DNA from: an uncultured Spirochaetota bacterium
GTDB taxonomy: Bacteria; Spirochaetota; Spirochaetia; SZUA-6; CAVTHK01
Direction of reading: 5' to 3'
Length of the DNA stretch: 64,000 bases
Assembly: GCA_963734495.1 (NCBI GenBank)
Contig: CAVTHK010000001.1
Location: 544,001-608,000, forward strand
In this document: positions 36,306 through 59,855 of the stretch, piece by piece
Position numbering within the stretch: position 1 is the first letter of the stretch
How the letters are laid out: every line of letters starts with the position of its first letter
Notes under the pieces: model-generated
The model's database searches: none
What the model was told of the DNA's origin: nothing
The model's input: the letters and a program-made list of their open reading frames with translations, nothing else
Made by a program: the position numbers and the translations under genes

Positions 36306-36327
36306 ACTGACGGCTGCAAGCGCGGAC

Positions 36328-36730: not shown

Positions 36731-37471
36731 CTACGACACGGCCAGGTCCACTCCTATCTGCAGGAGTCCCAGCCTTGCCGCCAGCCCGACGGACGCGATG
36801 TTGTCCCAGGAGGTGCTGTAGAGCGGGTTCATGGCCTGCTGACGCACGAGGGCGGCCCAGGCAGCCACGACCTCGGCTCCGTACCCGCGGCGGCGCAGGC
36901 GCGGAAGCGTCTCCACTCCGGCCTCCACATCGTGAGAGGATCGGCGAACGACCTGGCAGACCGAGACGGCGCGGCCGCCTTCGAGCCTGGCCACGCACGG
37001 CTGAACCAGGTCGAGCCGCTCGACGAGGTCGTCGAACCCATCGCGCAGAACGTGGGCTTTGCCGCGGTCCACGACCGTGACGCGCGGCGCGGCGGGCAAC
37101 TCCGTGGGAAACCTGTAGACGGGGCCGTGATGGACGATCTGCGTCTGCGAGGACGACGCCCCCAGCGCATCGCACAGGATGGCGCCCAGCTGCGCCTCCG
37201 CCCCGAACGGGAGGCTGCCCAGGGCGGCGCTCACGCGGCGTGCGGCCTCGTCCGAAACGTCATGGCGGACGGCGAACACCAGGACCCCCTGCCCGTGGCA
37301 GAGGTACGCCCGAGGGGCGGGACGCGTCGCGCCCCAGGGCTCGTTGATGGAAAGCAGCCGGCCCGCGCGATCACAGACGTACAGGAGCCGCGGGCGTCGC
37401 CGGATCACGTCGGCGTCGTCGAAGCTCGCGGCGGCATCCCTGGTTCCCACAGCTGCTCCGCGACCTCGCAC
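36731..37471 (-). CDS. GNAT family N-acetyltransferase
   Basis: EAGVETLPRLRRRGYG (AcCoA loop), YSTSWDNIASVGLAARLG; start uncertain. Confidence 0.8.
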   Translation of the reverse strand: MRGRGAAVGTRDAAASFDDADVIRRRPRLLYVCDRAGRLLSINEPWGATRPAPRAYLCHGQGVLVFAVRHDVSDEAARRVSAALGSLPFGAEAQLGAILCDALGASSSQTQIVHHGPVYRFPTELPAAPRVTVVDRGKAHVLRDGFDDLVERLDLVQPCVARLEGGRAVSVCQVVRRSSHDVEAGVETLPRLRRRGYGAEVVAAWAALVRQQAMNPLYSTSWDNIASVGLAARLGLLQIGVDLAVS

Positions 37472-37543
37472 TTCAGTCTATTCCAGGATCGCCGGATAGC
37501 GCGAGCCGGTGCGAGCCGGGCGGCGCCCGGCTGAGCCCGGCAC

Positions 37544-38455
37544 TCAGCCGTTCGCTCTGTGATCGGCGAGGACCTGGTCGATCGTGCGGCGAGAGATGCC
37601 GGCAAGCGTCGGGTTGGTGCTCTTGTAGTACGGGAGCGCGATCAACCCGGTGGACAACGCCCAGCCGCTGCCCCGCGCCCAGCTCGCGTCATCGGCGGCG
37701 AGCGACGCGCGGAACACGACCCTGGTTTCGGCGGAGAGTAAGTTCCAGGCCACCATCAGGTCGCACGCGGGGTCGCCCACGCCCAGGCAGCCGAAGTCGA
37801 TGACGGCGCTGAGCCGACCCTGCTGCTCCAGAAGGTTCCCCGGCCTCAGGTCGCCGTGGATCCAAACCGGCGGGCCGCTCCACTCCGGGGCCCCGAGGGC
37901 CGCTTCCCACGCCCGCGCCGCGGCTTCCGTGTCGAGCGTGCCGCGCAGAGCCGCAAGCGCGGCGCGGACGCGCTCGTCCCGCGTCGCGAGCGGGACGCCG
38001 CGGCCCGAGTTGTGCTCGCCGGGCGCAGGCCCGCCGGAGGCGTCGACACGTCGCAGGGCGGCCACGAACCGGGCGAGCTGCCGCGCAGCCTCGCCCGGAT
38101 CAGCGAGACCTTCGAGGGTCGCCTCCTCGCCGTCGAGCCACCGGTAGATGGACCAGCGCCACGGGTAGCTCTCCGCGGGCTCGCCCATGGCGAGCGGGAC
38201 GGGGATGGCCAGCGGCAGGTGGGGGGCGAGCTTCGGAAGCCACTCCTGCTCCTTGTCCACCTGCCCGACCGCCCAATGGATGCGGGGCATCCGCACGACC
38301 ATGTCCTCGCCGAGCCGATAGAGCGCGTTGTCCGTCCCGGCGGTGGCAACCGCCTCGATGCGGAGGCCGGCCCACCGCGGAAACTGAGCGGCAAGCAGCC
38401 TTCGCACGAGGGATGCGTCGGTGTCCACCTCGTCGGCGTGCATTCTGCGGGTCAT
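37544..38455 (-). CDS. Aminoglycoside phosphotransferase (APH/ChoK) family protein
   Basis: GTDNALYRLG, KEQEWLP, WIHGDLRPGN, IDFG...GDPACDL. Confidence 0.9.
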   Translation of the reverse strand: MTRRMHADEVDTDASLVRRLLAAQFPRWAGLRIEAVATAGTDNALYRLGEDMVVRMPRIHWAVGQVDKEQEWLPKLAPHLPLAIPVPLAMGEPAESYPWRWSIYRWLDGEEATLEGLADPGEAARQLARFVAALRRVDASGGPAPGEHNSGRGVPLATRDERVRAALAALRGTLDTEAAARAWEAALGAPEWSGPPVWIHGDLRPGNLLEQQGRLSAVIDFGCLGVGDPACDLMVAWNLLSAETRVVFRASLAADDASWARGSGWALSTGLIALPYYKSTNPTLAGISRRTIDQVLADHRANG

Positions 38456-38468
38456 GAGCGCCTCGCGC

Positions 38469-39528
38469 CTACGGCGCGGCCGCCCGCAGGAGGCGGGTCA
38501 CTTGGGCAGCGGAGGCCTCGAGCGGGATCACCCGCGAGCAGCGCCTGCCGCGCGCGAGCTCGGCCGGCGGCAGCGAGGCCTCGAGCGCGTCGACGGGCAG
38601 CAGGTGCGGGTGAGCCGCCACCCACGCCTCCGCCCGCTGCAGGTCGGCGGCGGCGACCGCCAGGTGCACCATCGTGACCGCGGGCTCGGCCTCGAGCCGG
38701 TCGAGCATCCGCGCGAGCGCGTCCTCGTCGAGCTCGCGGCCGTCGAGGAGGACCTCGATGGCGGCGGACTTCTTCAACTTACCTCTCTTCCTGGCGATGC
38801 GGTCAGCCTCGCGGTAGGAGGCCGGGTCGCCCACGTCCAGGCAGTCGCCGTCGATCAGCCACCCGTAGAACGGCGCGCGCGGGACCAGCCACTCCATCAT
38901 GGTACCGGGCGCGTCGGGGCGGCCGGTCGACGCGGGCGTACTCGCGGATGAGCGGCAACGCGTCGCGCGGGAACGTGTAGAACGCGATGCTCTCGATCGA
39001 GGTCGGGGGCCGCGCGGGCTTTTCCAGGAACTCCGTGATGCGGCCGTCGGGGGCGAGCACGGCGCAGCCGCGGCGGCCAGCGAGCTTCGCGGGGTCGCCC
39101 ACGTCCTCGCAGGTGTTGGCGCCGCCCCCCTTTTCGCGGGCGAAGGCGAGGAAAGCGGGGATGGAGAAGCTGAAGAGCTTGTCGGAGCACACCACGAGGA
39201 GGTCCTCGTCGAGGCCGAGGCGGTCCATGGCGAAGAGGAGGTCGCCGACGCTGCCGCGCCGCGTTTCGTTCGTCGTCGTCCCGTCGTCGAGCACCGTGAC
39301 CGGGCGCAGGCCCGCAGCCTTTGAGCGCCGCTGCCACAGGTCGAAGAAGGCGGCGTAGCGGCTGTTCGTGACCAGGGTCAGGTCTTCGATGCCGGGGGCC
39401 GCTGCCAGCGCCTCGACGGTCCCGTCGAGGAGGGGGCGGCCGCCAACGCGCAGGAGCGTCTTGGGGTAGAGGCGCGTGTAGGGGTGCAGACGCGTGGCGT
39501 AGCCCGCGGCCAGGATGACGGCCCTCAC
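38469..39528 (-). CDS. Sugar-1-phosphate nucleotidyltransferase with C-terminal extension (frameshift near 38916-38925)
   Basis: ILAAGYATRL, PKTLL, DDGTTTNETRRGSVGD, FLEKP; a one-base correction gives DAPGTMMEWL...LDVG. Confidence 0.85.
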
Positions 39529-39564
39529 GCGAGCCCCTGCATGGGTCGGCGCTTCACGCCGCGC

Positions 39565-40599
39565 TCACGACCGGCCCGCCGGGTCCGCGGCGATACGGAT
39601 CCTGAGGGTCCGGTAACCTTCGCGCGCGTACGCCTCGTCCAGCTCGGCGTAGTGCTTGTCGCCGCTGCAGACGCCCACCGCCGCGCCGCCCGATCCCGAG
39701 AAGTTGGCGTGCGACCCGTGCTCGCGCGCGATCTCGATCATGCGCACGTTCTGCGGCGCCAGCGAGTAGACGCTGCGCCGCAGGTCGAAGTCGCGGCTCA
39801 TGAGGGCCCCGATGTCGCCCCCGCGGCCCGCCTCGAGGCAGGCGACCGCCTCGTCGGCGAGCGCCGCCTTGGCGGCCATCGCCTCGAGGACCCGGGCGTC
39901 GTGCTCCACCGAGACGCGGTAGCGCATGATGTTGTGGACCTCGCCCGAGGATTTCGACAGCTCGTCCTTGTAGGCGATGTAGAGCGGCGGCAGCAGGCGG
40001 GGATCGAGGTTGCGGTAGCCGCCGTGCCTGCCTTCGTTGGCAGCCCACGCCTCGCGGGTGAAGTCCATGTACACGAGGCCCCCGTAGACCGCGACCACGC
40101 GGTCCTGCGGCCCGGCGCTGATGCCGAGCTCCGCGGTCTCCGCCTCGAGGATGATGTTGGGCTGCACGGCCTTGGGGATGTCGCGAACGCTGAGCTCGTA
40201 GAAGCGCATGAGCGCCGCGAACACGGCCTTGATGATCGTGCTCGAGCCGCCGAGCCCGAGGCCGAAGGGCACGTCCGAGTCGTACTCTATGGTGAAGTTC
40301 CGCCGCGGAAGCTCGATCCCGTGCAGGTCGCAGTACTGCTTGAAGCGGACGAGGATCGCCTCGATGATCCGGATCCCGCCGTAGTAGCCGTAGGTTCTGC
40401 GGTAGCGCACGAGGTCGTCGAGGCTCTCGAAGCGCGTGAGGTCGCGGGCCGTCGGCACGATGTGCAGCTCGGGCGTCTCGTAGAGGACGACCTGCGCCTT
40501 GAAGGCATCGAACAGGAAGGAGATCACCTTCCCGTTGAAGATGTCCGAAGGGTTCCCGATGAGGCCCGAGCGGGCGTAACAGCTTTCTCTGATGATCAC
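39565..40599 (-). CDS. GHMP kinase of the glucuronokinase type
   Basis: YARSGLIGNPSD, GYYGGIR, PFGLGLGGSS, ELGISAGPQDRV..VYGGLVYMDF, SGEVH, FDLRR, FSGSGGA. Confidence 0.85.
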   Translation of the reverse strand: MIIRESCYARSGLIGNPSDIFNGKVISFLFDAFKAQVVLYETPELHIVPTARDLTRFESLDDLVRYRRTYGYYGGIRIIEAILVRFKQYCDLHGIELPRRNFTIEYDSDVPFGLGLGGSSTIIKAVFAALMRFYELSVRDIPKAVQPNIILEAETAELGISAGPQDRVVAVYGGLVYMDFTREAWAANEGRHGGYRNLDPRLLPPLYIAYKDELSKSSGEVHNIMRYRVSVEHDARVLEAMAAKAALADEAVACLEAGRGGDIGALMSRDFDLRRSVYSLAPQNVRMIEIAREHGSHANFSGSGGAAVGVCSGDKHYAELDEAYAREGYRTLRIRIAADPAGRS

Positions 40600-40704
40600 T
40601 TGAAATGCGCTCCTGGGGTCCGGTCTTGCCGCTGCGCGACCGTGGACGCGGAAGCCGCCCGGTCGCGCAAGGGAGGCCGCCCGGCAGCGCGGCCGCGCCG
40701 GGCC

Positions 40705-41439
40705 TCAGAACCAGAGCTTATCACCGTTGGCACGGAGCCACCTCGAGCGGGCGCGCCAGTCCGGCAGCACGCGCTCCACGTCGCGCCAGAACGCCGGCGT
40801 GTGCCCTCGCTCGCGGAGGTGGGCCAGCTCGTGCACGCACACGTACTCGCGCACCGCGGCCGGCGCGAGCAGCAGGCGCGTGGACAGGTTGATGGCCCCG
40901 CGGCGCGAGCAGCTGCCCCAGCTCGCCCGCAGGTACTTGAGGCGAACGAGCGGCGCGCGGCCGCCGAAGGCGCGCGACGCGACACGTTCGACCGTGTCGC
41001 GCATCCGCGGCAGCCACGCGCGCGCCAGGCAGCGGCTGGCGAGCAGCGTCACCTGCCTGCCCTTCTCCAGCGGGTCGAGGCCCAGCGGGACGACGACGCG
41101 GAGCTCGCCGCCCTCGAGGCGCGCCGTCCCCGTGCGCCGTTCGCGCTCCTCCAGCCGGAGCGTGTACTCCGCTCCATCCACGGAAAAACGCTCGCCGTCG
41201 GCAAAGGCGCGCCACGCGGGTCTCGGCGCGAGGCGTCGCTTGTCCACCGTGCGCCGGGCCCACGCGAGCATCCGGGCAACGGCGTCGTCGCGCTCGGCAG
41301 GGCTGAAGCTCCAGGGCACGCGGATGTGGACCGCGCGCTTGCCGATCGACGCCCTCACGTTGGCCCGGACCTCGAAGGTGATGCGCACCGGGTAGCCCGC
41401 GCCGCCCGCGCGGCCGGCGGGAACAAGTCGCTGGTTCAT
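40705..41439 (-). CDS. YgjP/DUF45 (M48/SprT-like) zinc metalloprotein
   Basis: SWGSCS, YVCVHELAHL...HTPAFW. Confidence 0.85.
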   Translation of the reverse strand: MNQRLVPAGRAGGAGYPVRITFEVRANVRASIGKRAVHIRVPWSFSPAERDDAVARMLAWARRTVDKRRLAPRPAWRAFADGERFSVDGAEYTLRLEERERRTGTARLEGGELRVVVPLGLDPLEKGRQVTLLASRCLARAWLPRMRDTVERVASRAFGGRAPLVRLKYLRASWGSCSRRGAINLSTRLLLAPAAVREYVCVHELAHLRERGHTPAFWRDVERVLPDWRARSRWLRANGDKLWF

Positions 41440-41450
41440 GCGCTCGGCGC

Positions 41451-41873
41451 TCAAGGCTTGACGATCTCGCCCTTCCACCTGCCGATCGGTCCGAAGTCCA
41501 CCACGTTCGTGTACCCGGCCCCGGTGAGCGCCCGGTACGCCGCGGCCGAACGGGACCCGCTGCGGCAGTAGACGATGATGAGGGCGGCCTTGTCGCGCGT
41601 CGGAGGCTTTGCCAGGATCGTGTCGTTTGGGATGTTGACGGCCGTGGGGATGTGTCCGGAAGCGAACTCCTCCGGCGTCCTCACGTCGACCAGGATGTAG
41701 GGGACGCCTTTGCCGGCCGCCTTGTCCGCGATCAGCTTCTGGAGCCCGTCCGGCGTCCCGTAGTCGGCCGACTTGTTGCCCTGCGCCTTGTCGTCCTGCG
41801 CCCCGCCCTGCGCCGCGGCCGTGAGGGCCGCCGCGAGGCCGAACACCAGCGCCGCCAGTCCTGCCCTGCGCAT
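41451..41873 (-). CDS. Exported rhodanese-like domain protein
   Basis: Signal peptide, DVRTPEEFASGHIP, YCRSGSRS; SD AGGAGG. Confidence 0.9.
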   Translation of the reverse strand: MRRAGLAALVFGLAAALTAAAQGGAQDDKAQGNKSADYGTPDGLQKLIADKAAGKGVPYILVDVRTPEEFASGHIPTAVNIPNDTILAKPPTRDKAALIIVYCRSGSRSAAAYRALTGAGYTNVVDFGPIGRWKGEIVKP

Positions 41874-42021
41874 GGAAAGGTCCTCCTGCCTGCCTGCCGT
41901 AGACTGTACCGGAGGGGCCGACTGCGGCGCAAGCCCGCTCAAGCCCGCGAAGCCCGCGGCAAACCCTCCCCCGTTGCAGCGCCAGTCCCGCCCGGACTAC
42001 ACTCCCTGCGCGAGGCCCTCC

Positions 42022-48442: not shown

Positions 48443-48889
48443 TCACGGGGCGGTCCCCCGGGGCCCGGAGTCGCCGCTCCCGCCCGGCGCCGGTCCGTGC
48501 CTGCGGAACACGAGAAGCTTCTGCGCCGCGAACGAGAGACTCACGACGATCGCGAGGGCAGCGATCTGGCCGGCGTAGCGGCCCAGGCCGGCCCGCTCGA
48601 CGAACAGCACGAGCAGCGCCATGTTCAGCGCGAGCATGGCGGCGTATGAGCCCGCCATCCCCGCAACCATCCGCGGGGTGACCGGCTCGCGGTTGCCGAA
48701 TGTGAACCCCTTGTTCGCGAAAAAGCTGAAGGTAGCTCCCACGCAGTACTCGGCCGCAAGCGCCGCGCGGTAGTCCAGGCCGAGGGCGACGAGGCCCGAG
48801 TAGATGAGGAACGTGACCGCGGTGTTTACGACCCCTACGAGGTTGAACCTGGCGATTTCGCCGAGTAGACCTTTTTTTTCACCACCCAC
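48443..48889 (-). CDS. GtrA family flippase-like membrane protein
   Basis: RFNLVGVVNT, SFFANKGFTF, SFAAQKLLVF; four TM segments; own start codon uncertain. Confidence 0.8.
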   Translation of the reverse strand: MGGEKKGLLGEIARFNLVGVVNTAVTFLIYSGLVALGLDYRAALAAEYCVGATFSFFANKGFTFGNREPVTPRMVAGMAGSYAAMLALNMALLVLFVERAGLGRYAGQIAALAIVVSLSFAAQKLLVFRRHGPAPGGSGDSGPRGTAP

Positions 48890-49773
48890 TGCGGAGTCCC
48901 GTTGACGTCGAGATAGAGCTTTCCGAGGTATTCGCCGACCAGGCCGAGGAACACCATCTGCACGCCGCCGATAAAGAGGACCGACACGATGGTCGACGCC
49001 CAGCCGAGCGGCTCGCCGGGGGTCACCAGCTTCTGCACGAGGAACACGACTGCCAGAACGACGCACGCGGTCGACAGGAGCATTCCGGCGAACGTGACCA
49101 GGCGGAGAGGCTTGATCGAGAAGTTCACGAACATGTTGAGCCACAGCCCGACGAGCCTGCCGAGGGTGTAATTGGACCGGCCGACCTTGCGTGGATTGTG
49201 CTCGACGTACGCGCTTCCGATACTGTTCGTCACCCGGAGGATCAGGCCGTCGACGTACGGGTACGGGCCCTTGTACTTGACGATCTCGTCGATGACGTCG
49301 CGCTTGATGAGCTTGAAGCTGCTGAGGTAGAGGTCGCGGGGCTTGCCGAGGAGCCACGTCGCGACTCTGTCGTTGAAGCGGCTGCCGAGGTTGCGAAAGA
49401 GGTTGTGCTTCTTCTTGCGGTACTTCGAGTACACCACGTCCCAGCCGTTCGTCGCCTCCGCGAGCAGCTTGGGGATCTCCGACGGCGGGTTCTGGAAGTC
49501 GTCGTCGATGATGGCGGCGTAGTCGCCGCTGCAGTGGTTGAGGGCGCACATGACGGCATTGTGCTCGCTGAAGTTCCGTCTCAGGGAGATGAACTTGAGC
49601 CCGTCGAGCTCGCGCGCGAGACGCGAGCACACCTCTTCGCTCCTGTCCCTGCTCCCGTCGTTGACAAGGACGATCTCGAGCTCGATCCCCGCGAGGTCGC
49701 GGCGCACGGCGCGAACGAGCTCCTCGATCGTGGCCTCGGCGTTGTAGACCGGTACGCAGACACTGAGCAGCAT
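48835..49773 (-). CDS. GT2 polyprenyl-phosphate glycosyltransferase (ArnC/GtrB-like)
   Basis: VPVYN, VNDGSRD, RNFSEHNA, DDDFQNPP, SNYT, two C-terminal TMs, GEYLGKLY. Confidence 0.9.
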   Translation of the reverse strand: MLLSVCVPVYNAEATIEELVRAVRRDLAGIELEIVLVNDGSRDRSEEVCSRLARELDGLKFISLRRNFSEHNAVMCALNHCSGDYAAIIDDDFQNPPSEIPKLLAEATNGWDVVYSKYRKKKHNLFRNLGSRFNDRVATWLLGKPRDLYLSSFKLIKRDVIDEIVKYKGPYPYVDGLILRVTNSIGSAYVEHNPRKVGRSNYTLGRLVGLWLNMFVNFSIKPLRLVTFAGMLLSTACVVLAVVFLVQKLVTPGEPLGWASTIVSVLFIGGVQMVFLGLVGEYLGKLYLDVNGTPQWVVKKKVYSAKSPGSTS

Positions 49774-49787
49774 GCGTCCACTCCCGC

Positions 49788-50871
49788 CTAGAATCGGTTG
49801 ATGACTTCGACGACGCCGCGGATCTGCTCCTCGGTGTGGCAGTAGGAGATCGGCAGGCTCACCGTCGTGTTGTGGATCTCGTCGGCGATGGGGAACTCGT
49901 ACTCGTCCAGGAGCCCCTCGAGGGCCTTCTGCCTGCTCGGCGCCAGCGGGTAGTGCACGTCGGTCTTGATTCCGGCTTTGAGCAGGTGCTCACGCAGGGC
50001 GTCCCTCTTCGGGTGGCGCACGTTGAAGATGTGGTAGATGTCGTAGAAGCCGTCCTCGACGACGGGCTTTACAAAGTCGTCCTTGAGGTTCTCCAGGTAG
50101 ATGCGGGCGAGCCTGCGCTTGTGCTCGTTGATCTCGTCCAGGTGGCGGAGCTTTACCGAGAGGAAGCCGGCCTGCACCTCGTCGAGGCGCGAGTTGTAGC
50201 CCACGACTTCGTTGTAGTACTTCTTGATCGAGCCGTAGTTGCGGTACATGCGCAGCTTCTGCGCGATCGCGGCGTCGTCGGTGACGACCGCGCCGGCGTC
50301 CCCGAGGGCTCCCAGGTTCTTGGTCGGATAGAAGCTGAAGGCGCCCAGCCCGAAGGTGCCGACCCGCCGGCCCTTGTAGCGCGCCCCGTGGGCCTGCGCG
50401 GCAATCCTCGATGAGGGCCAGGTTCCTCCGGCGGCAGATCTCGAGAATCGGGTCCATGTCGCACGACTTGCCGTAGAGATGGACGGGCATCACGGCCCGC
50501 GTCCTGGGGCCGACCTTGGCCTCGATGAGCGCGGGATCGAGATTGTACGTGCGCAGGTCCGGCTCGACCAGCACGGGCCTGTGCCCGCACTGGAGGATCG
50601 CGAGGATCGTCGCGATGTAGGTGTTCGAGGGAACGATCACCTCGGAGCCGGCGGGCAGGTCGAGGACGCGCAGCGACAGGATCAGGGCGTCCAGCCCCGA
50701 GGCGACCCCGACGCAGTGCGCGGCACCGCAGTACCGGGCGAACTCCTGCTCGAACGCGGTGACCTTGCCGCCGAGGATGAACCAGCCGCCGTCGAGCGTC
50801 TCGGCAAGCGAGCGCTTGTACTCTTCGAAGAACGGCTCGTTCGCTTTGCGCAGGTTCTCGTAGTCGATCAT
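49788..50871 (-). CDS. DegT/DnrJ/EryC1/StrS aminotransferase (FdtB-like), frameshift near 50400
   Basis: [20 protein letters not shown]; corrected [32 protein letters not shown]. Confidence 0.85.
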
Positions 50872-50888
50872 CGTGCTTCCTCCGGCGC

Positions 50889-51872
50889 TCAAGCGAGCCA
50901 CCAGCGGTTCTCGCGGGCCCACTCGATCGTGCGCTGCAGGCCCGCGGCCAGGGGTACTTTCGCCTTCCAGCCGAGGGTCTCCGCTGCCTTGCGGACGTCG
51001 GGCACGCGCCTGGGGATGTCCTCGTAGACCGCCCCGTATTCCCTGGTCGTGTCAAAGGGCACCATCTTCACGGCGGCTCCGGACACCTTGATCACCGTCT
51101 CGATCGCCTCGCGGACGCTCGTCTCCGTCGGGTTCCCGAGGTTGAATGCCTCGCCGACGGCGGCGGGGTTTCCGGAGGCTTCGAGGATGCCGTCCACGAT
51201 GTCGGCCACGTAGGTAAAGCAGCGGGTCTGGGTGCCGTCGTCATAGCACAGGGGCGGCTCGCCCCGCAGCACCTTGTAGACGCTCTGCGAGATGACGAAG
51301 TAGGGGTTCTGCCGCGGCCCGTAGACATTGAAGAAGCGCACGATCGAGAACGGCAGCCCGCTCTGGCGATGGATGCCGTAGATCATGTGCTCGCACACAG
51401 CCTTGCTCGAGCTGTAGCTCCAGCGGTCCACATACGTGGGACCGAGCACCCTGTCGCCGTCCTCGCGCCAGGGCGTTGCGGGGTTCTTCCCGTAGACCTC
51501 GCTCGTGCTGGTAAAGATGAACTTCGTGCCGTGCCGGCTCGCGAGCTCCAGGAGCGTCCGCGTGCCCCCGACCACGATGTCGATCAGCTTGAGCGGGTCC
51601 GCGAGGTAGTGCTTGATCCCCACGACCGAGGCCAGGTGATACAGGACCGCGGCCTCGGGGCGATAGAAGCGCTCGACCGCGGCCCTGTCCCTGAGATCGC
51701 CGACAAAGTACTTCAGGTTGGGATGGCTGCGGACCGCGGCCAGGTTGCGGGACTCCTCGAGGGGAGCGATGTCAAAGACGTGGACCTCGTCCCCGCGGTC
51801 GAGCAGCGCTTCGACAATGTGGCTGCCGACGAACCCGGAGCCTCCCGTGACCATGACAACGTTGCCGCTCAC
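50889..51872 (-). CDS. NAD-dependent nucleotide-sugar epimerase/dehydratase (UDP-GlcA decarboxylase-like)
   Basis: TGGSGFVG, TSTSEVYGK, RWSYSSSK, RFFNVYGPR, QTRCF, YEDIPRRVP. Confidence 0.8.
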   Translation of the reverse strand: MSGNVVMVTGGSGFVGSHIVEALLDRGDEVHVFDIAPLEESRNLAAVRSHPNLKYFVGDLRDRAAVERFYRPEAAVLYHLASVVGIKHYLADPLKLIDIVVGGTRTLLELASRHGTKFIFTSTSEVYGKNPATPWREDGDRVLGPTYVDRWSYSSSKAVCEHMIYGIHRQSGLPFSIVRFFNVYGPRQNPYFVISQSVYKVLRGEPPLCYDDGTQTRCFTYVADIVDGILEASGNPAAVGEAFNLGNPTETSVREAIETVIKVSGAAVKMVPFDTTREYGAVYEDIPRRVPDVRKAAETLGWKAKVPLAAGLQRTIEWARENRWWLA

Positions 51873-53175
51873 CTTCCCACCCCTTTGTAGCGCAGTCCAG
51901 CGCATCTCATCCGCTCGAGCTTGTCTCTGCAGATCATCCGGCCGTCAAAGATCAGCGCGCGGGGCCCGGCGAGGCGCGCGAGCTCCTCGATCGGAATCTC
52001 GGGGAACTCGCTGGGCCCGTAGTGGAACATGGAGACGAAGTGGGCACGCCGGAGGGTGTACGCCCTCCGAGGTCGCGCGAAAGGCGCGGCCCGCCACGGC
52101 GTAGGCGACTTCGTCGCTGACCCCGGGTCGTAGCATGCGGAGCGTCTCCGCGGAGCGCAGCGCGTCGATGACGCCCTTGGTGGGCGTGTAGCGGCAGTCG
52201 CCGGTGTTGTTGAACGCGATCCCGAGCACGGCCACGACGCGCGGCCGGGAACGCCGTCGTGGATGAGGCCGTCGATCAGGCCCGCCGAGTAGCCGGGCAT
52301 GCTGTCGTTGACGTTGCGCGAGGTCGCCGGGGTCTTCAACTCGATGCCGAGCTGGGCGCCCATGCCGTGCACGAACCAGGGGTCTTTGGTCAGGCAGTAG
52401 CCGCCGACGCCGACCGAAGGCGTGAGGATGTTGACGTGGTGGCGGCCCTTGGGAAGCGTGTTGGCGGCGTCGATCATCTCCAGGACGTCGATGTCGAGCC
52501 GGTCGCTGAGCTTGGCCAGCTCGTTGGCGAGGGCGATGTTCAGGTCGATCCAGAGGTTGTCCGCGAGCTTGACCATCTCGGCCGTCCTCGCGTCGGCCAC
52601 GCGGATCACCGGGACGCCGAGGCTTCGCTCCCAGAATTCGGCCGCCGCCCGCGTGCTCTCCGCATCGACGCCGCCGACCACGACCGGGATGTTGCGGAAC
52701 TCCTGGATCGCGCGGCCCTCGGCCAGCCGCTCCGGGCAGAAAGCCAGCCTGACCCGCGCACGCGCCTCGAGGATGGGGCGCACGACGTCGGCCGTGGTCC
52801 CGGGGGTACGGTGCTCTTGAGCATGACGAGGCGGCCGTCGCGCAGGTGCGGCGCCAGCTGCCGCGAGGCTTCCGTGATCTGGCTCAGGTCCGCGGCCCCG
52901 TGCTCGCCGAGCGGCGTGCCCACGGTGATGAGGACCACCTCGGCATCGGCCGCGGCCGACGCCGAATCCGTCACGCTGAGCCTGCCCGCGCGCACGGTCT
53001 CCGCGATCAGCGCATCCAGCCCCGGCTCGTTGAAGGGGCTGCGGCCCGCCGCGACCGCCTCGCGGATGGCCCCGGCGCGCTCCACGCCCGTGACGGAGTA
53101 GCCCCGCTCGGCAAGGACCGCGCCGATGACGGCGCCGATATAGCCGAACCCTATGACACAGACTCTCTCTTTCAT
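51869..53175 (-). CDS. UDP-sugar (GlcNAc/ManNAc/Glc-type) 6-dehydrogenase, several indels
   Basis: GFGYIG, VGTP, KSTVPP, CPERLAEG, EMVKL, GVGGYCLTKDP, IFDGR, YKGVGR spread over three frames. Confidence 0.75.
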
Positions 53176-53576
53176 GCGAGCGCCGCCCTCTTGAACTCCT
53201 GGTAGTCGCGAATGTACTCCCCGGCGTCGTAGAGGCTGTCGCTCAGCACCAGAAGGACGCAGTCGGGCGAGAAGTCGTACATCTCTTTCCATGTCATGCG
53301 GTCGGCGAACAGCGCCTGAGAGGGCTCGGTCAGCTCGTACTCCGCAACGTGCCGGCCGTCGTCGACCCTGATGCGGCACCTGCCCGCCACGGCTACGAAC
53401 ACCATCTTCGAGACCCTGTTGGCGTGCTGGCCCCGCACCGAGCCCGACCCCATGCCGTACATGTAGAACACCCGCCTGATCTCGAAGGGGATGTCCTTGG
53501 ACCCCTCGGCAACGACCAGGGACCCGCGCGCGTCCGGCGTGCAGCGCAGGCGGATGAGATGCGAATTCGTGTCCAC
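53172..53576 (-). CDS. FdtA/QdtA family cupin (dTDP-4-keto-6-deoxyglucose 3,4-ketoisomerase)
   Basis: DARGSL, IPFEIRRVFY, RGQHAN, WKEMYDFSPDCVLLVL, EYIRDY. Confidence 0.85.
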   Translation of the reverse strand: MDTNSHLIRLRCTPDARGSLVVAEGSKDIPFEIRRVFYMYGMGSGSVRGQHANRVSKMVFVAVAGRCRIRVDDGRHVAEYELTEPSQALFADRMTWKEMYDFSPDCVLLVLSDSLYDAGEYIRDYQEFKRAALA

Positions 53577-53586
53577 GCGAAGCCTC

Positions 53587-55317
53587 CTACCCGGACGGGA
53601 CCCTGCGCGACGGCTCGAGTATCTGGAACATGGCATTCTCCCAGACGACCCGGTAGCCGAACTGGTCGAGAAACCGCCGCATGCGCTCCCGGTTGAGGAC
53701 GGAGACGTCCCCGCGGTTGAGCGAGGTGTTCCTAGGCCAGGATCGATTGCGGGTGTCCGTCCTGGCAGCGACGACGACGGGAAGGTCCGGGCGCGCCTTG
53801 AGCGCCCATTTCAGGCTCTGTTCCAGCTCGTTGCCGACGTACAGGTTCGGCCACGAGTTGCCCAGGTAAGGGCGCGTCCTGGTCGCGAAGTTGATCATCG
53901 GCGTGGACTCCAGGGCGAGAAGGACGTCGCCCGGGCGGACGCGCCTGGACAGCTCGTCGAGCACATCGCCCACGACCTGCGCGCGCTCGGGCGTCGTGTA
54001 GACGCCGTGCAGCATGGGGTCCCGGACCGTGGCGGTCATCGCGAGCCGGTCAGCGCTGTCGCGGTAGGTGTAGTGCAGCCAGAGGTAGGCCGAGCCGAGC
54101 GCCGTGAACGCGACGAAGAACGCGAGGCCAAAGGAAGCCACGCGCGGAAGCGCGAGCATCCGGGGAGCAGCAGGCGGGTCGGCCTGCACCGCGATGCCGA
54201 CGGCCAGCACGAGCGGGAACGCGAGGGCGTAGCCGAAGAGGCTCACCAGCGCGCCGGTGTCCGAACCGACCGAGAGGGCGGCCAGCACGATGATGGCGGC
54301 GAAACACGCGACCTTCAAGTCCCGGTGGGCTTCGCCGCGGACCAGGAGGGCCAGGGCAAGCGGCATGTAGGCGAACCCCAGGGCTGCCCGCATCACCGTG
54401 CGGTCGCCGTCGAGCCGGGTGACGAGCAGAAAAGCGAAAGCGGCGATGGCCGCGAACAGGATGAGGCCGAGCCGCCGCGCGCGCTCCGGCAAGAGACCGC
54501 CCGCGGCCAGCAACACCCCGGAGGCCAGGCCGTAGACCGCGGCCTCGCCGTTCTGGCGCACGAAGCGGCGGACGATCGTCTTGAGGTCGTAGCCCGAGAG
54601 CTGGTTCCCGGTGCTCTGGAAAAGCCCCGCGACCGAATCCGCGTACAGGGACAGATGGCCGACGGCCGCCATGGCGAGGAGCACGACCGCGAGGCCGAGA
54701 GCATACCCGCCTGCGAACCAGAGCAGGCGGGCGGGCAGGCCGGGCCGCCGGTCGACAAAGGCGTGATAACCGATGACCAGGGCCAGCGCGATGCCCGCGG
54801 CATTGGGCAGCCGCACGAAGACATTGGCGGCTTCGATCGCGCCCGCGACTGCCAGAAGCCACGGCCTGTCGCGCCGCAGCCCTTCGAGGAGGCACAACAC
54901 CGCGGCGAAATGGAACAGGGCGGTCAGGTTGTTGTAGTGAACCACCGGCACCCGCGGGAACTGGAAGCCGTAGGCCAGGATCAGCCCCACGAGCACCAGC
55001 CGGACGGGGACTACGGGTTTGAGAGCCCGCCACACGAGAAGGCAGGAAGCCCAGAAGACGACGGCTGCCGCCAGCTTGAGGCCGAGAAGACCCAGAAAGG
55101 GGACCGCGCGGTAGACGAGGCCGCCGATCACGTTCGACAGCCACATGTGGAACCAGTACCGGATGCTCCCGGGGTCGACAAAGATGAGCTGGTAGCTGTT
55201 GGCGACCCAGCCGGTGTCCGTGAAGTCGAGCCCCTGAAAGGCGGACAGGAACGGAATCGCAAAGAGAAGGGCGAGCAGGCCGGCGTCGGCCCACCGTCGC
55301 GGCGCCGTCGCGTTCAC
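53587..55317 (-). CDS. Multi-TM membrane protein, probable GT-C glycosyltransferase
   Basis: First loop QGLDFTDTG (acidic GT-C-like), more than 10 TMs, soluble C-terminal domain, glycosylation-cluster context. Confidence 0.6.
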   Translation of the reverse strand: MNATAPRRWADAGLLALLFAIPFLSAFQGLDFTDTGWVANSYQLIFVDPGSIRYWFHMWLSNVIGGLVYRAVPFLGLLGLKLAAAVVFWASCLLVWRALKPVVPVRLVLVGLILAYGFQFPRVPVVHYNNLTALFHFAAVLCLLEGLRRDRPWLLAVAGAIEAANVFVRLPNAAGIALALVIGYHAFVDRRPGLPARLLWFAGGYALGLAVVLLAMAAVGHLSLYADSVAGLFQSTGNQLSGYDLKTIVRRFVRQNGEAAVYGLASGVLLAAGGLLPERARRLGLILFAAIAAFAFLLVTRLDGDRTVMRAALGFAYMPLALALLVRGEAHRDLKVACFAAIIVLAALSVGSDTGALVSLFGYALAFPLVLAVGIAVQADPPAAPRMLALPRVASFGLAFFVAFTALGSAYLWLHYTYRDSADRLAMTATVRDPMLHGVYTTPERAQVVGDVLDELSRRVRPGDVLLALESTPMINFATRTRPYLGNSWPNLYVGNELEQSLKWALKARPDLPVVVAARTDTRNRSWPRNTSLNRGDVSVLNRERMRRFLDQFGYRVVWENAMFQILEPSRRVPSG

Positions 55318-56186
55318 TGCCGCGTCTCCGGCACGAACGAGAGGTAGCTCCTGTAGTCGTTGGCGGGCATCGCCGCGATCAGCTTTCGGAAGCCCGCTTC
55401 GTCGATGTAGCCCATGTGGAGCGCGACTTCCTCCACGCACCCGATCTTGAGCCCCTGCCGCTTCTCGATGGTCTGCACGAAGCTCGAGGCTTCGACCAGC
55501 GCATCGTGCGTGCCCGTGTCGAGCCAGGCGGTCCCGCGGCCGAGGTTTTCGACCTTGAGCTCTCCGAGGGCGAGGTAGTGGCGGAGCACGTCGATGATCT
55601 CGTACTCGCCGCGGGCCGACGGCGTGAGGCTCCTGGCCACCTGCGCGACGGTGCCGTCGCAGAAGTAGAGCCCGGGGACCGCGTAGTGCGAGCGGGGCCG
55701 CGCCGGCTTTTCCTCGAGGGAAAGGACCTGTCCGCCGCCGCCGAACTCCACCACCCCGTAGCGCTGCGGATCGGCCACCCAGTAGCCGTAGACCAGGGCC
55801 CCTCGCTCCAGGCGCGCCCCCGCCTGCAGGATCTCCGAAAAGCTGTAGCCGAAGAAGATGTTGTCGCCGAGAACGAGACAGACCGGGTCGCCGTCGATAA
55901 AGTCCTCGCCGACGACGAACGCCTCAGGCAGACCGCGGGGCTCCGCCTGCACGCGATAGCTCAGCCCTATCCCGAGGTCCTCGCCCGTGCCGAGGAGAGC
56001 CTCGATCCGCGGGAGGTTGACGGGGTCGGAGATCACCAGGATCTCCCGGATGCCGGCGAGCATGAGCGTGGACAGCGGGTAGTAGATCATGGGCTTGTCG
56101 TACACCGGGAGAAGCTGCTTGGAGACGGCCCTGGTGCTGGGGAACAGCCTCGTTCCGCGGCCTCCGGCAAGGAGAATGCCCCTCAT
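55314..56186 (-). CDS. rfbA: Glucose-1-phosphate thymidylyltransferase
   Basis: GILLAGGRGTRL, SKQLLPVYDKPMIYYPL, LGDNIF, YGVVEF, SARGE, AWLDTGT. Confidence 0.95.
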   Translation of the reverse strand: MRGILLAGGRGTRLFPSTRAVSKQLLPVYDKPMIYYPLSTLMLAGIREILVISDPVNLPRIEALLGTGEDLGIGLSYRVQAEPRGLPEAFVVGEDFIDGDPVCLVLGDNIFFGYSFSEILQAGARLERGALVYGYWVADPQRYGVVEFGGGGQVLSLEEKPARPRSHYAVPGLYFCDGTVAQVARSLTPSARGEYEIIDVLRHYLALGELKVENLGRGTAWLDTGTHDALVEASSFVQTIEKRQGLKIGCVEEVALHMGYIDEAGFRKLIAAMPANDYRSYLSFVPETRQ

Positions 56187-56285
56187 TTCACGGTCCTCGG
56201 GCACCTTATAGCACGTCTGGGGCGGGGTCGGGAACCGGACCCGCGCGACTCCGATGCAGCGGCCGCGCCGGCTCGACGCCCGTCG

Positions 56286-57239
56286 TCAGCGCGGTCTCTC
56301 GCGCCCGGCGGCTTCCTGCCGCTGCCGGTACTGGACCTCCTCGAGAAGCATCCGGTTGACGGCGAGCAGGTCCGAAAGGAATGCGACGAGGATCGTCTGG
56401 AAGCCCATGCCCAGCAGGATCGCCGAGAGGATCAGCGACTGGACGTGGCCCGTCCCCTGTCCGCCGATCAGGTAGAGCAGGAAGCGCGCGCCCAGGGCGA
56501 AACCCAGCAGGAACAGCACGGTCCCGATCGAAGCGAAGAAGGCGAAGGGCCGGTAGACGACGAAGATCCGGACCATCGTCATGATCGAGCGCTTGATGTA
56601 GGCGGGGATGCTCTTTACCAGGCGCGACGGCCTCAGGTCCTCGTTGACCCTCACGGGCACCGACGTGATGGCCATGCCCTTGCGCCCCGCCTGGATGATG
56701 GTCTCGAGGGTGTATGTGTAGTCGTTGTACACGTTGAGCCGCAGCGCGGCGTCCCGGCTCAAGGCGCGGAAGCCGCTGGGCGCGTCCGGAATTTCCGTCT
56801 TGCTCAACGCCCTCACGACGCGGCTGCCGAGGCGCTGCAGAGCCTTCTTGACGGGCGAGAAATGCGGTATGCCCTCGATCGGGCGCGCGCCCACCACGAT
56901 CTCCGCCCGGCCGGCGAGGATCGGCTCGACCAGCCTGGGAATGTCGCGGGCATCGTACTGGTTGTCGGCGTCGGTGTTCACGATCACGTCCGCCCCCAGG
57001 CGCACCGCGGCATCCAGACCCGCCATGAACACCCGGGCCAGGCCGCGATTGCGGGGGAACCTCACGAAGTGGTCGACCCCGTGCTTGCGCGCGACTTCGA
57101 CGGTCGAGTCCGTGCTCCCGTCGTCGATGACGAGCCATTCGACCGAGTCAAAGCCCGCGACGGTGCGCGGGAGAGCCGCAAGGGTCACGGGCAGAGTGGC
57201 GGCCTCGTTGAAGCACGGAATCTGGATAATGAGCTTCAC
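56286..57239 (-). CDS. GT2 polyprenol-phosphate glycosyltransferase (DPM synthase-like)
   Basis: IPCFNE, DDGSTD, NTDADNQY, DAPSGFRA, two C-terminal TMs. Confidence 0.9.
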   Translation of the reverse strand: MKLIIQIPCFNEAATLPVTLAALPRTVAGFDSVEWLVIDDGSTDSTVEVARKHGVDHFVRFPRNRGLARVFMAGLDAAVRLGADVIVNTDADNQYDARDIPRLVEPILAGRAEIVVGARPIEGIPHFSPVKKALQRLGSRVVRALSKTEIPDAPSGFRALSRDAALRLNVYNDYTYTLETIIQAGRKGMAITSVPVRVNEDLRPSRLVKSIPAYIKRSIMTMVRIFVVYRPFAFFASIGTVLFLLGFALGARFLLYLIGGQGTGHVQSLILSAILLGMGFQTILVAFLSDLLAVNRMLLEEVQYRQRQEAAGRERPR

Positions 57240-57243
57240 CGCG

Positions 57244-58806
57244 TCAGTCCTCCTGCGACCGCGAGTCTTCGCGAATCAGGGGCGGGGCAGCCGCAACGAC
57301 GGTAAGAGCCGCCCGGAGCGGGTTGCGACGAACAGCCACGACCGGCGAGCCCGGGTCGCGCAGATAGGCCGCGGAAACGGGAGCGCGGGCGAGCGCCACG
57401 ACGGGCCGCCCGGCCAGGCTGGCCTCGACCAGGCGCGGGAGGCCGGAGGCCTCGAGCACCGAATCGCTCACGAAGAACTGCGCGCACGTCTCGAGCGGGT
57501 TGCGGCCGGACAGGTCGTCGGTTGCGACCACCGGCACGCCCCGGTCGAATGCGTCGGACACCGTGCGCCGGTAGTCTTCCACCAGGGCGAGAGGGTGCTC
57601 GGAGGGACGCAGCGGGTTGTTGGCGTAGATCCTCACGCTTCGGGGGAGCCCCGGAATCGAAAAGGCACCGGCGGCAGCCAGGAGCACCGCCGCCATGAGG
57701 GATGCGCAGGATCGCGCGCGCAGCGGTCCCGCTGCAGGACGGACGCGCCGCCATACGTCGACGAGGAGCGGGGCATCCAGGAGCAGGACCGGCCCCAGCA
57801 TTCCCAGGAGGTATCTGTGGATGAAGGGCTCCACCGGGATGACGGGGTGGATGCTCTTGACGACGAAGGTCTCACCGAGAAGGAAGCTCGCGGCGAGGGC
57901 GAGCAGCGCGGCGGTGGCGGCGTCAGGCTTGCGGCGCACGGCGTAGCGCACGGCCGCGGCGGCCGCGAGAAGAAGGACCGCCATCCAGTACCAGGGCAGC
58001 TTCCCGGGGCTGAAGCGCCCGAACAGGCCCCAGAAGTCCATCGGCGCGATGTAGTCGCCGGTGAAATGATTGTGGATGATGATGCCGATCTGGCCGAGCG
58101 GGTCGCCGGAGAGCCGGTACAGCAGCGCGTGCTCCACGGCATAGAGGACGAGAAGCGGCGCGCAGAACAGGAGGGCGTCGCGGCGCCCGCGGCCGCGGCC
58201 GCGGCGGAACGCCAGGATCGCCAGCAGGAAGCCCGGCGCGAAATAGATGTTCGTGATCTTGGCCTGGTAGGCGACGAACAGAAAGACGGACGAGACGAGA
58301 AGGTTGCGGGTGCGGTCCCGTTCGCCGTCGAGGTACGCGAGGAAGAAAGAGAAGCTCGCGAGCACGTACGTCAGCGAGAAGGAGTCCGGCCGCACCTGGC
58401 TCCCGCCCCGGATCATGTAGGGGAAGGTCACGAGCATGAGGGCCGCGACGAAGCCGGCGGCACGGCCGTGGAGGCGCAGGCCGACGCGGTAGATGAGGGC
58501 GACCTGGACCAGCGAAAGGACGAGCGGCACGACGTAGTAGACATCGGGGTGCGTCCCGAAGAGCGCCTGCGCCGCGAGCACCGGCAGGATCACGGCAAAG
58601 CGGATCGTGCGGTGCTGGATGTTGTCATAGGGGAGGCCCAGGAGCAACCGCCTCGCCGAGAACCAGTAGTCGCGCTCGTCGATGCCGGTGGCGATCATCA
58701 TGAGCGTGAGGAGTCGGAACGCCAGCGTGAAGAGCACGAGGCCGGCAACGATGCGCCGATCCTCGTCGCGCAGCAGCTCCGACGCCCTCTTCAGCAGGCT
58801 GCTCAC
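57244..58806 (-). CDS. GT-C (ArnT/PMT-like) membrane glycosyltransferase
   Basis: First loop GIDERDYW, RPDS after the mid TM, AYQAK, about 11 TMs. Confidence 0.65.
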   Translation of the reverse strand: MSSLLKRASELLRDEDRRIVAGLVLFTLAFRLLTLMMIATGIDERDYWFSARRLLLGLPYDNIQHRTIRFAVILPVLAAQALFGTHPDVYYVVPLVLSLVQVALIYRVGLRLHGRAAGFVAALMLVTFPYMIRGGSQVRPDSFSLTYVLASFSFFLAYLDGERDRTRNLLVSSVFLFVAYQAKITNIYFAPGFLLAILAFRRGRGRGRRDALLFCAPLLVLYAVEHALLYRLSGDPLGQIGIIIHNHFTGDYIAPMDFWGLFGRFSPGKLPWYWMAVLLLAAAAAVRYAVRRKPDAATAALLALAASFLLGETFVVKSIHPVIPVEPFIHRYLLGMLGPVLLLDAPLLVDVWRRVRPAAGPLRARSCASLMAAVLLAAAGAFSIPGLPRSVRIYANNPLRPSEHPLALVEDYRRTVSDAFDRGVPVVATDDLSGRNPLETCAQFFVSDSVLEASGLPRLVEASLAGRPVVALARAPVSAAYLRDPGSPVVAVRRNPLRAALTVVAAAPPLIREDSRSQED

Positions 58807-59855
58807 AGGCGTCGGTACTCCTTGTACCAGGCCACGAAGCGCCGGACTCCCTCGCGGATGTCGATCGAGGGCCGGTAGCCGGTGTCCCGCTCGAGGTCGC
58901 TCGTGTCGGCCCAGGTGGTCGTCACTTCGCCCGGCTGCATGGGCATCAGGCTCTTCGTCGCCTTTCTGCCCAGGTTCTCCTCCAGGATCCCGATGAAATC
59001 GAGCATCAGGACCGGGCTCCCGCGCCCGATGTTGTACACCCGGTAGGGGGACGGGGAACAGGAAGGGTCGGGATGCGCGCCGGACCAGCTCGGCTCCGGC
59101 CTCGCGGGACGGTCGATGACGCGAACGACGCCCTCGACGATGTCGTCGATGTAGGTGAAGTCGCGTCGCATCTCGCCGTTGTTGAACACCTTGATGGGCT
59201 TCCCCGACATGATGCCCTCGGCAAACAGGAAATAGGCCATGTCGGGCCGTCCCCACGGACCGTAGGCGGTGAAGAACCGCAGTCCCGTGGTCGGAAGCCC
59301 GAAGAGGTGGCTGTAGCTGTGCGCCATGAGCTCGTTGGCCTTCTTGGTCGCCGCGTACAGGCTGACGGGATGGTCCACGTTGTGCCGGACGGAAAACGGC
59401 ATCGACTCGTTCAGTCCGTAGACGCTGGAGCTGCTGGCGTAGGTCAGCCCCTTGACCTCCGTCCTGCGGCAGCCCTCGATCACGTTCCCGAAACCCACGA
59501 GGTTGGCGTCGACGTAGGCCGAAGGATTCTCCAGGCTGTGGCGGACCCCGGCCTGCGCCGCGAGGTGGCAGACCGCGTCAAAGCGCTCGGCGGCGAACAG
59601 CCGCGCCATCGCCTCGCGGTCGGCGACGTCCATGAGCAGGAACCGGTGGGCGGGGTAGCGGGAGCTCGCCGCGGCGCGGCCGCCCTGCAGGCCGGCCGCA
59701 TCGATGCCCGCCTCCGCGAGGCGGCCGTGCTTGAGCCGGACGTCGTAGTAGTCGTTGAGGTTGTCGAGCCCGACCACTTCGTCGCCCCGCTCCAGCAGGC
59801 GGCGGGTCACGAACGAGCCGATAAAGCCCGCCGCGCCCGTCACGAGAACCTTCAT
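58803..59855 (-). CDS. UDP-glucuronate 4-epimerase (Uge/CapI family)
   Basis: TGAAGFIG, DNLNDYYDV.LK, HLAAQAGVR, ASSSSVYG, SLYAATKK, YGPWGRPDMA, RDFTYIDD. Confidence 0.9.
   Translation of the reverse strand: MKVLVTGAAGFIGSFVTRRLLERGDEVVGLDNLNDYYDVRLKHGRLAEAGIDAAGLQGGRAAASSRYPAHRFLLMDVADREAMARLFAAERFDAVCHLAAQAGVRHSLENPSAYVDANLVGFGNVIEGCRRTEVKGLTYASSSSVYGLNESMPFSVRHNVDHPVSLYAATKKANELMAHSYSHLFGLPTTGLRFFTAYGPWGRPDMAYFLFAEGIMSGKPIKVFNNGEMRRDFTYIDDIVEGVVRVIDRPARPEPSWSGAHPDPSCSPSPYRVYNIGRGSPVLMLDFIGILEENLGRKATKSLMPMQPGEVTTTWADTSDLERDTGYRPSIDIREGVRRFVAWYKEYRRL

Follow-up and report, generated by a model that had tools for sequence, protein, structure and literature searches.

A glucuronokinase-family gene paired with an animal-type pyrophosphorylase homologue in an uncultured Spirochaetota bacterium: a candidate route for UDP-glucuronic acid salvage

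Many capsules, lipid A modifications, and glycosaminoglycan-like polymers are built with UDP-glucuronic acid (UDP-GlcA) as the donor, and the textbook source of this sugar nucleotide in bacteria is the oxidation of UDP-glucose only. In Arabidopsis, glucuronokinase (GlcAK; At3g01640, EC 2.7.1.43) acts together with UDP-sugar pyrophosphorylase (USP) in the myo-inositol oxygenase (MIOX) route (PMC2823444). In zebrafish and Xenopus, the kinase is fused to a putative uridyl pyrophosphorylase (UP) domain, and the plant and fish kinases are reported to be strictly specific for glucuronic acid (GlcA) (PMC2823444, PMC3938481). The zebrafish UP domain was inactive in standard assays with eight nucleoside triphosphates and gave a small UDP-GlcA signal only after 70 h, while the Xenopus domain showed no activity; that 2014 study states that the function of the fused pyrophosphorylase could not be demonstrated and that an active homologue was lacking as a positive control (PMC3938481). 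Pieslinger et al. recorded GlcAK genes in "a few bacteria" and placed three bacterial sequences in their tree (PMC2823444), and Gangl et al. pointed to a similarity of the UP domain to nucleotidyltransferases of bacteria and archaea, stating that the prokaryote proteins "only encode a pyrophosphorylase" (PMC3938481). Here we analyze a 64,000-nt stretch (the window) of a contig from an uncultured Spirochaetota bacterium (genome G000), in which a GlcAK-like GHMP kinase gene is followed by a gene for a UP-type sugar-1-phosphate nucleotidyltransferase (NT). The pair may form a salvage module leading from GlcA through GlcA-1-phosphate (GlcA-1-P) to UDP-GlcA, a reading to which we give a probability of roughly 55%. 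What is new is the pairing of the UP-type NT with the kinase, as the bacterial GlcAK homologues themselves have been known since 2010.

Its sequence places the kinase in the glucuronokinase family. It matched both GHMP profiles (GHMP_kinases_N, PF00288, E = 5.3e-10; GHMP_kinases_C, PF08544, E = 9.1e-06), and a search of longer proteins returned 24 matches, the full-length ones with 37 to 46% identity over 90 to 97% of the query. Among the 24 were Ambrosia glucuronokinase and proteins of sea urchins, crustaceans, an annelid, and a sponge in which an NT is fused to the kinase. The sea-urchin, sponge, and annelid fusions and the plant enzyme were 40 to 46% identical to the kinase over 94 to 97% of its length, and E values against eukaryotic GlcAKs ranged from 1e-63 to 1e-88. 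Pairwise identity to the Ambrosia enzyme, an orthologue named by UniRef that served as a stand-in for Arabidopsis GlcAK, was 40 to 45%. All kinase motifs on which the sequence-only reading had relied are present in the translation (CYARSGLIGNPSD, YGYYGGIR, ELGISAGPQDRV, VYGGLVYMDF, SGEVH, and FDLRR). The best solved structure was an HddA-like kinase (E = 1.6e-10), and the search of the PDB with the kinase returned no GlcAK structure.

The phylogeny that the sequence-only reading had proposed likewise groups the kinase with glucuronokinases of plants and animals, apart from HddA. The tree comprised 78 rows (42 loci, 11 database proteins, the window, 14 eukaryotic proteins, 5 fused metagenomic proteins, and 5 HddA-like proteins from genomes of the same order; kinase pieces with fewer than 280 aligned residues were omitted) and was built as a quick IQ-TREE run with SH-aLRT support only. 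The 73 GlcAK-like rows were split from the 5 HddA-like rows with a support of 99. Among the former, the window kinase falls within a 45-row bacterial clade (support 100); the others comprise a 9-row clade whose members adjoin or are fused with GalU-type enzymes (clade B; support 98), a 3-row group, one lone row, and a 15-row eukaryote clade (support 90), and the branching order between these groups is not settled. Of 138 alignment columns with at least 90% conservation across 12 eukaryotic GlcAKs, the window kinase matches 93 (67%), compared with an average of 27% for the HddA-like rows; on average, its own clade keeps 67% and the GalU-linked clade 70%.

The family is large. A word-indexed search found 4,260 relatives of the kinase at E ≤ 0.001 among 8,000 scored candidates, and the source-given names among the 120 relatives listed were always "glucuronokinase" (JGI). 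An all-against-library HMMER search yielded 379 cluster representatives at E ≤ 1e-30, and 39 of the best 150 were at least 560 amino acids (aa) long. The label "eukaryote-type" that had been given to the module is therefore misleading, as family members in bacteria number in the thousands and some were already on record in 2010 (PMC2823444). Few genomes of the phylum have the kinase (4 of 301 at E ≤ 1e-30).

The NT is read in two frames in this assembly. Its N-terminal frame matched NTP_transferase (PF00483, profile positions 2 to 188 of 245, E = 1.6e-21) and is about 76% identical to the intact orthologue in a genome of the same genus (G001, locus L002), and the catalytic part in the second frame aligns with the WLDTG region of RmlA and the YDIG region of GalU. 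The NT scored below every NCBIfam cut-off (AglF, 66 bits versus 400; GalU, 32.4 versus 326.8; RmlA, 25.2 versus 360.65). Its identification as GalU (TIGR01099) was rejected, as the match covers the N-terminal motif only and the G001 orthologue gave no GalU match at E ≤ 1e-08. RmlA (TIGR01207) was rejected as well; the true RmlA of the window is a separate gene scoring 425.2 bits (Table 1).

By sequence, the NT shares a subfamily with the UP domain at the N terminus of animal glucuronokinase/pyrophosphorylase fusions and is its specific bacterial equivalent; the link that had been drawn to the animal pyrophosphorylase thus holds. The G001 orthologue is 29% identical to the N-terminal 240 residues of a sea-urchin fusion (E = 1e-22). 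With the sea-urchin UP domain as the query, 28 bacterial kinase-linked NT rows (27 loci and the window) were matched at E values of 6e-15 to 4e-32, the window NT at 2e-25, and GalU-type NTs at 3e-05 or worse, while RmlA was not matched. In an NT tree of 45 rows (three near-duplicate or truncated rows omitted), one clade of 36 rows, set apart from GalU and RmlA (support 99), united the kinase-linked NTs of bacteria with the fused domains of eukaryotes; inside it, the eukaryotic rows made up an 11-row subclade (support 98) that joins the bacterial subclades in a comb without resolved order. The family has at least 1,320 members at E ≤ 0.001 among 8,000 scored, and the nine closest relatives of the window NT are single proteins of 327 to 371 aa. 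It is labeled "glucose-1-phosphate thymidylyltransferase" by JGI and "nucleotidyltransferase family protein" by NCBI; neither label fits the NCBIfam and similarity scores.

Catalytic residues were compared by aligning the NTs with the window RmlA and GalU-type enzymes. In the alignment, every one of the 28 UP-type NTs from bacteria keeps the Thr-Arg of the GxxTR motif, found here in AAGY(A/G)TR. Those shown that extend over the remaining sites all retain the lysine of PK, the aspartate of (S/T)D, EKP, and the aspartate of YD(V/I)G, which in RmlA is a metal-binding residue. The base-recognition stretch of RmlA and GalU, Q-x-E-P-x-G-L, is replaced in the UP-type NTs. In the eukaryotic fusions aligned, the YD(V/I)G aspartate is changed to leucine (FQLIG) in 10 of 10, and the arginine of GxGTR is lost in 6 of 10. 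A Carassius carassius entry with the NCBI name "glucuronokinase with putative uridyl pyrophosphorylase" (P0277) has both changes (GHGTIL and FQLIG), while the fused metagenomic forms P0141 and P0316 keep both the arginine and the aspartate. The animal losses were read in this carp protein and in P0122 to P0134; the zebrafish sequence itself was not among them. Such losses may be the cause of the near-inactivity of the zebrafish domain.

The arrangement of the two genes is conserved. Loci were sampled from 41 related genomes, two named metagenome-assembled genomes (from a single-protein locus search), and 39 metagenome contigs (from an alignment-based scan), and a locus was counted as assessable if its kinase was at least 50% identical, its 3' end was present, and the DNA continued for at least 250 bp past it. 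The NT lies directly downstream of the kinase on the same strand in 30 of the 33 assessable loci. Twelve loci fell outside this count, being at contig ends or having a best kinase match without the 3' part. The sample includes near-duplicates (L005/L014, L026/L036, and L030/L031), and the number of independent cases of pairing is therefore lower than the number counted. Among the 41 related genomes, a UP-type NT was found in 9 (E ≤ 1e-25), all of them within the 10 genomes that hold a full kinase of the window's clade, and none was found at this threshold in the 30 genomes without the kinase; one further genome (G040) has a 91-residue fragment only, at a contig end. The conservation of the pairing, which the sequence-only reading had named as a check, is thus borne out, with the NT never occurring without the kinase in the 41 genomes. 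The spacing between the matched segments of kinase and NT in other loci ranges from -9 to +141 bp.

The neighbors of the pair vary between genomes and are often glycan-synthesis genes, for example, GT4 directly upstream (L021 and L022), GT2, Wzy, and a flippase (L013), and SDR epimerases (L024, L025, and L039). In the complete genome of one relative (L014, 7789 to 8859), an inositol-monophosphatase-family gene lies just past the pair on the opposite strand, and a link of the pair to inositol metabolism is possible. Four loci outside clade B, L041, L044, L045, and L047, lack an NT next to the kinase. The GlcAK-like kinases of L044 (1316 to 6497) and L045 (5971 to 11289), a third small group with 44 to 46% identity, stand beside flaG, fliD, fliS, and flagellin genes with no NT neighbor, a hint that they may serve the glycosylation of flagellin.

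Clade B provides a second instance of the same layout. An NTP_transferase gene comes next in all four clade B loci with downstream DNA (L011, L015, L016, and L017), and three of these neighboring NTs scored 374.5, 325.5, and 370.7 bits against the GalU equivalog, the cut-off of which is 326.8. Furthermore, the fused clade B proteins P0136 to P0139 have a GalU-like N terminus. GalU-type uridylyltransferases beside or fused to the sister kinase clade point to UDP as the nucleotide, and the presence of two separate NT lineages beside one kinase family is the strongest argument for a pathway in which a kinase is followed by a uridylyltransferase.

In the first step proposed for the window pair, the GHMP kinase would phosphorylate free D-glucuronic acid at C-1 with ATP to yield GlcA-1-P. 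In the second, the NT would join GlcA-1-P and UTP to form UDP-GlcA and pyrophosphate, the former serving glycan synthesis. We favor this salvage reading because of the family membership of the kinase, the adjacency and coinheritance of the two genes, the motifs of the NT, and the two uxaC genes of G000 (707 and 630 bits). With these genes, free hexuronates are part of the organism's diet. A GalU equivalog was not found in G000 (best score, 39.8 bits), nor was one found at E ≤ 1e-20 in G001, and both genomes have a UDPGP-family gene of the eukaryote type (PF01704). GalU-like genes with 216 to 236 bits occur in three further genomes of the order, one of which (G011) also has a UDPGP-family gene.

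Several observations weigh against salvage of GlcA by the pair. Three of the 33 assessable loci (L007, L041, and L046) have no NT downstream of the kinase, and in one genome with the kinase (G020) a UP-type NT was not found anywhere. The window NT is frameshifted in this assembly, and one related 260-nt contig runs ungapped across 38678 to 38928. The UDPGP-family gene just mentioned in G000 and its congener could take the second step instead of the NT. The clade of the window kinase is separate from the eukaryotic clade, not nested in it, and 45 of the 138 conserved columns differ; the sugar could therefore be a different one. Our literature search turned up no assay of a bacterial glucuronokinase and no description of a kinase-NT operon, and the sole studied homologue of the NT type, the UP domain of zebrafish and Xenopus, was nearly inactive (PMC3938481). 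A MIOX search of the genome gave no match, although it is uninformative, as the same search matched 0 of 14 control genomes.

The likeliest alternative keeps the logic of a kinase followed by an NT and assigns the pair another substrate. The sugar could be another uronic acid, such as galacturonic acid, or a hexose that is neutral or N-acetylated, or the nucleotide could differ from UTP. We consider it possible but unlikely. It draws on the distinctness of the bacterial kinase clade from the assayed plant and fish enzymes, with a third of the eukaryote-conserved columns differing, on the thymidylyltransferase label that JGI gives to the NT family, and on the replaced base-recognition stretch. 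The best NCBIfam and PDB neighbors of the NT, although far below cut-off, use glucose-1-phosphate or mannose-1-phosphate with UTP, dTTP, or GTP, and the zebrafish domain made almost no UDP-GlcA (PMC3938481). Against it, both kinase lineages tested, plant and fish, are reported to be GlcA specific (PMC2823444, PMC3938481), and the window kinase and the eukaryotic GlcAKs have a common set of motifs in the active-site region. In addition, the sister kinase clade is paired or fused with GalU-type uridylyltransferases, and the window has its true RmlA elsewhere.

A second, improbable alternative to GlcA salvage by the pair takes the frameshift as real and the NT as a pseudogene. The kinase alone would then survive, and a PF01704 UDPGP-family (USP-like) enzyme would uridylylate GlcA-1-P as in plants. 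The frame break that the sequence-only reading had implied is indeed present in the assembly, with DAPGTMMEWL... read in another frame (open reading frame [ORF] 38469 to 38900). The gene is split by one extra base, and its G001 orthologue is one uninterrupted protein of 334 aa; wherever in the zone the extra base is placed, the protein length equals that of this orthologue. The related-population contig mentioned above, the only one over the zone among the contigs of four runs, crosses 38916 to 38928 ungapped and has 9 letters unaligned at its end; it is compatible with a real frameshift and with an assembly error alike. None of the 20 DNA sequencing runs listed held half of the sampled words, and none of the runs was recorded as RNA. 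The absence of a detectable UP-type NT in G020 and the UDPGP-family gene without a GalU equivalog in G000 and G001 also fit the pseudogene explanation.

The state of the assembly argues against it. Other genes of G000 are split likewise, namely, the DegT gene (49788 to 50922, minus strand, at about 50395 to 50400), the nucleotide-sugar dehydrogenase gene (at about 52755 to 52765), and the UDPGP-family gene on contig 16 (58297 to 59206), the G001 orthologue of which gives one match. This suggests single-base indel errors throughout the assembly, which is 83% complete (5.38 Mb, 18 contigs), compared with 99% for the congener (5.3 Mb). Both halves of the NT have coding-type composition and are 65 to 76% identical to G001, and the closest relatives are, as stated above, undivided proteins. 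With at least three more split genes in G000 and an unbroken orthologue in the same genus, the frame break is probably an assembly error, in which case the organism probably has a working pair.

A heptose module of the HddA/HddC type, which would make GDP-D-glycero-alpha-D-manno-heptose for an S-layer or capsule glycan and has the same layout of a GHMP kinase beside an NT, is very improbable: HddA is the best NCBIfam and PDB neighbor of the kinase by name, but the kinase scored 44.5 bits against the HddA equivalog cut-off of 600, the HddA-like genes of the same order are a far outgroup in the tree and are found together with a GlcAK-like gene in G011 and G014, HddC is absent from the 25 NT matches listed (of 27), and no SIS (GmhA) domain was present among the window ORFs scanned. 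HddA as the identity of the kinase was rejected on the same score and tree.

The features of the locus are listed in Table 1. The co-oriented NT begins after the 36-bp gap that had been read from the sequence. Its C-terminal extension had no match in Pfam or NCBIfam and is also present in G001 (L002, 3249 to 3530), G011 (L003, 344 to 727), L021 (4186 to 4605), and L022 (7825 to 8313). Across this sublineage the extensions span 95 to 160 aa with a common core, V.LV.L ... W...P.LLPV; the NTs of other loci mostly have none and end at 250 to 261 aa.

Table 1. Features of the kinase-NT pair and of its surroundings in the window
Feature	Position	Strand	Basis
GlcAK-family GHMP sugar-1-kinase, 344 aa, GTG start, TGA stop	39565..40599	-	ORF; PF00288, PF08544
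Spacer from kinase stop to NT start, 36 bp	39529..39564	-	Sequence
UP-type sugar-1-phosphate NT, N-terminal frame, VRAVILAAGYATRL ... REYAR, GTG start	38932..39528	-	PF00483
Zone with one extra base shifting the NT frame	38916..38931	-	DNA compared with intact L002 orthologue, REYARTTSRPDAPGTMMEWL
NT catalytic domain, C-terminal part, second frame, RPDAPGTMMEWL ... CLDVGDPASY	38801..38930	-	ORF 38469-38900 plus upstream extension in the same frame
NT C-terminal extension, about 110 aa	38469..38800	-	No family in Pfam or NCBIfam
YgjP-like metallopeptidase, upstream neighbor, outside the module	40705..41400	-	PF01863, E = 5.4e-40
APH-family phosphotransferase, downstream neighbor, outside the module, 13 bp past the NT stop	37544..38455	-	PF01636, E = 5.6e-43
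Arn-like envelope-glycan cluster	48835..59855		GT2, DegT aminotransferase, ArnA/UXS-like SDR, nucleotide-sugar dehydrogenase, RmlA, GT2, PMT_2, SDR
RmlA, in Arn-like cluster	55314..56204
ArnT-like PMT_2 membrane protein, in Arn-like cluster	57244..59577
Second SDR, in Arn-like cluster	58803..59855

Gene order is rearranged between the window and G001 (59.6 kb compared). The YgjP-like neighbor is kept only in this same-genus genome. A relative of the kasugamycin acetyltransferase AAC(2')-IIb (145.6 bits; cut-off, 390) follows the APH-family gene (36731 to 38455, minus strand, for both), and neither gene adjoins the pair in G001. A ribose-phosphate diphosphokinase-like gene (41773 to 43188, plus strand) stands beside rhodanese and YgjP-like genes, as it also does in G001 (L002, 2 to 418, minus strand); it scored just under the cut-off of TIGR01251 (108.3 versus 113 bits), and its ORF of 471 aa has a TTG start and is matched only from about residue 130. 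A scan of 36000 to 42200 for promoters and terminators detected nothing promoter-like; a single terminator-like site lay within the YgjP-like gene, with no excess over shuffled sequences.

The sequence-only reading had also suggested that the pair may feed 4-epimerase and decarboxylase-like (SDR) enzymes 10 to 20 kb away, in the Arn-like cluster. This is possible, but the suggestion rests on distance only, and the cluster has its own dehydrogenase, albeit a split one, which that reading did not mention. The nucleotide-sugar dehydrogenase subfamily gave three matches, two of which are pieces of this one gene (51869 to 53379, minus strand); the third, an unbroken gene lying 8 kb outside the window, seems to resemble UDP-ManNAc or UDP-GlcNAc dehydrogenases more closely.

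If the salvage reading is true, organisms feeding on uronic acid polymers could build envelope glycans directly from scavenged sugar. One-pot UDP-GlcA syntheses currently depend on the plant kinase, and a robust bacterial pair of GlcA kinase and UDP-GlcA pyrophosphorylase would be useful for them. The variant also bears on the open point of the 2014 zebrafish study, whether the fused pyrophosphorylase half works (PMC3938481). The bacterial NTs are small and keep all aligned canonical catalytic residues, and they are obvious candidates for the positive control missing from that study. Tentatively, the bacterial NT may be the catalytically intact form and the animal domain a GalF-like, near-dead pseudoenzyme, in which case the bacterial operon would hold the first active UDP-GlcA pyrophosphorylase of the family and would be the likely raw material of the eukaryotic fusion. 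We hold this wider proposal to be doubtful.

Among known systems, the L-fucokinase/GDP-fucose pyrophosphorylase FKP of Bacteroides fragilis follows the same salvage logic, with a GHMP sugar-1-kinase joined to an NT. It acts on another sugar and nucleotide as a fused protein, and the likeness to the window pair is one of logic only. HddA/HddC has the kinase-then-NT order of the window and the nearest solved structure by sequence, yet it lies far below cut-off and in the outgroup. The clade B pairs and fusions have the same kinase family and the same layout as the window pair, although their NTs are of another subfamily (325 to 375 bits against GalU, versus 32.4 for the window NT) and their kinases form a separate clade. 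The plant glucuronokinase belongs to the same GHMP subfamily as the window kinase and carries out the first step proposed here, from GlcA to GlcA-1-P. However, the bacterial kinases form their own clade, and the second plant enzyme is a PF01704-type USP, whereas the window pair has an NT of the RmlA/GalU fold.

The closest match is the DrGKUP fusion of zebrafish and Xenopus, both halves of which have counterparts in the window pair, with the kinase 41 to 46% identical to animal fusions. The description of the pair as the split form of the animal fusion stands to this extent; the order is reversed, as the NT is N-terminal in the single animal protein and the kinase comes first in the two-gene pair, and the tree gives no direction of descent. 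The window NT subfamily also lacks the insert of about 11 residues found after the first motif of animal UP domains, and its sublineage has a C-terminal extension that DrGKUP does not. Two residues retained by the bacterial NT, the arginine of GxxTR and the aspartate of YD(V/I)G, are both lost in carp, and the sea-urchin and other animal fusions lack one or both. A precedent for such a loss is found in a different NT subfamily, in Escherichia coli GalF and GalU. GalF has Met-His in place of the Thr-Arg of GalU and a Vmax of 0.015 U/mg versus 340 U/mg for GalU; according to the same report, GalU loses three orders of magnitude through the T20M/R21H exchange, and the equivalent arginine is important in other pyrophosphorylases as well (PMC4643126). 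By this comparison the animal UP domains parallel GalF, an NT nearly inactivated by the loss of Thr-Arg, and the window NT stands on the intact side.

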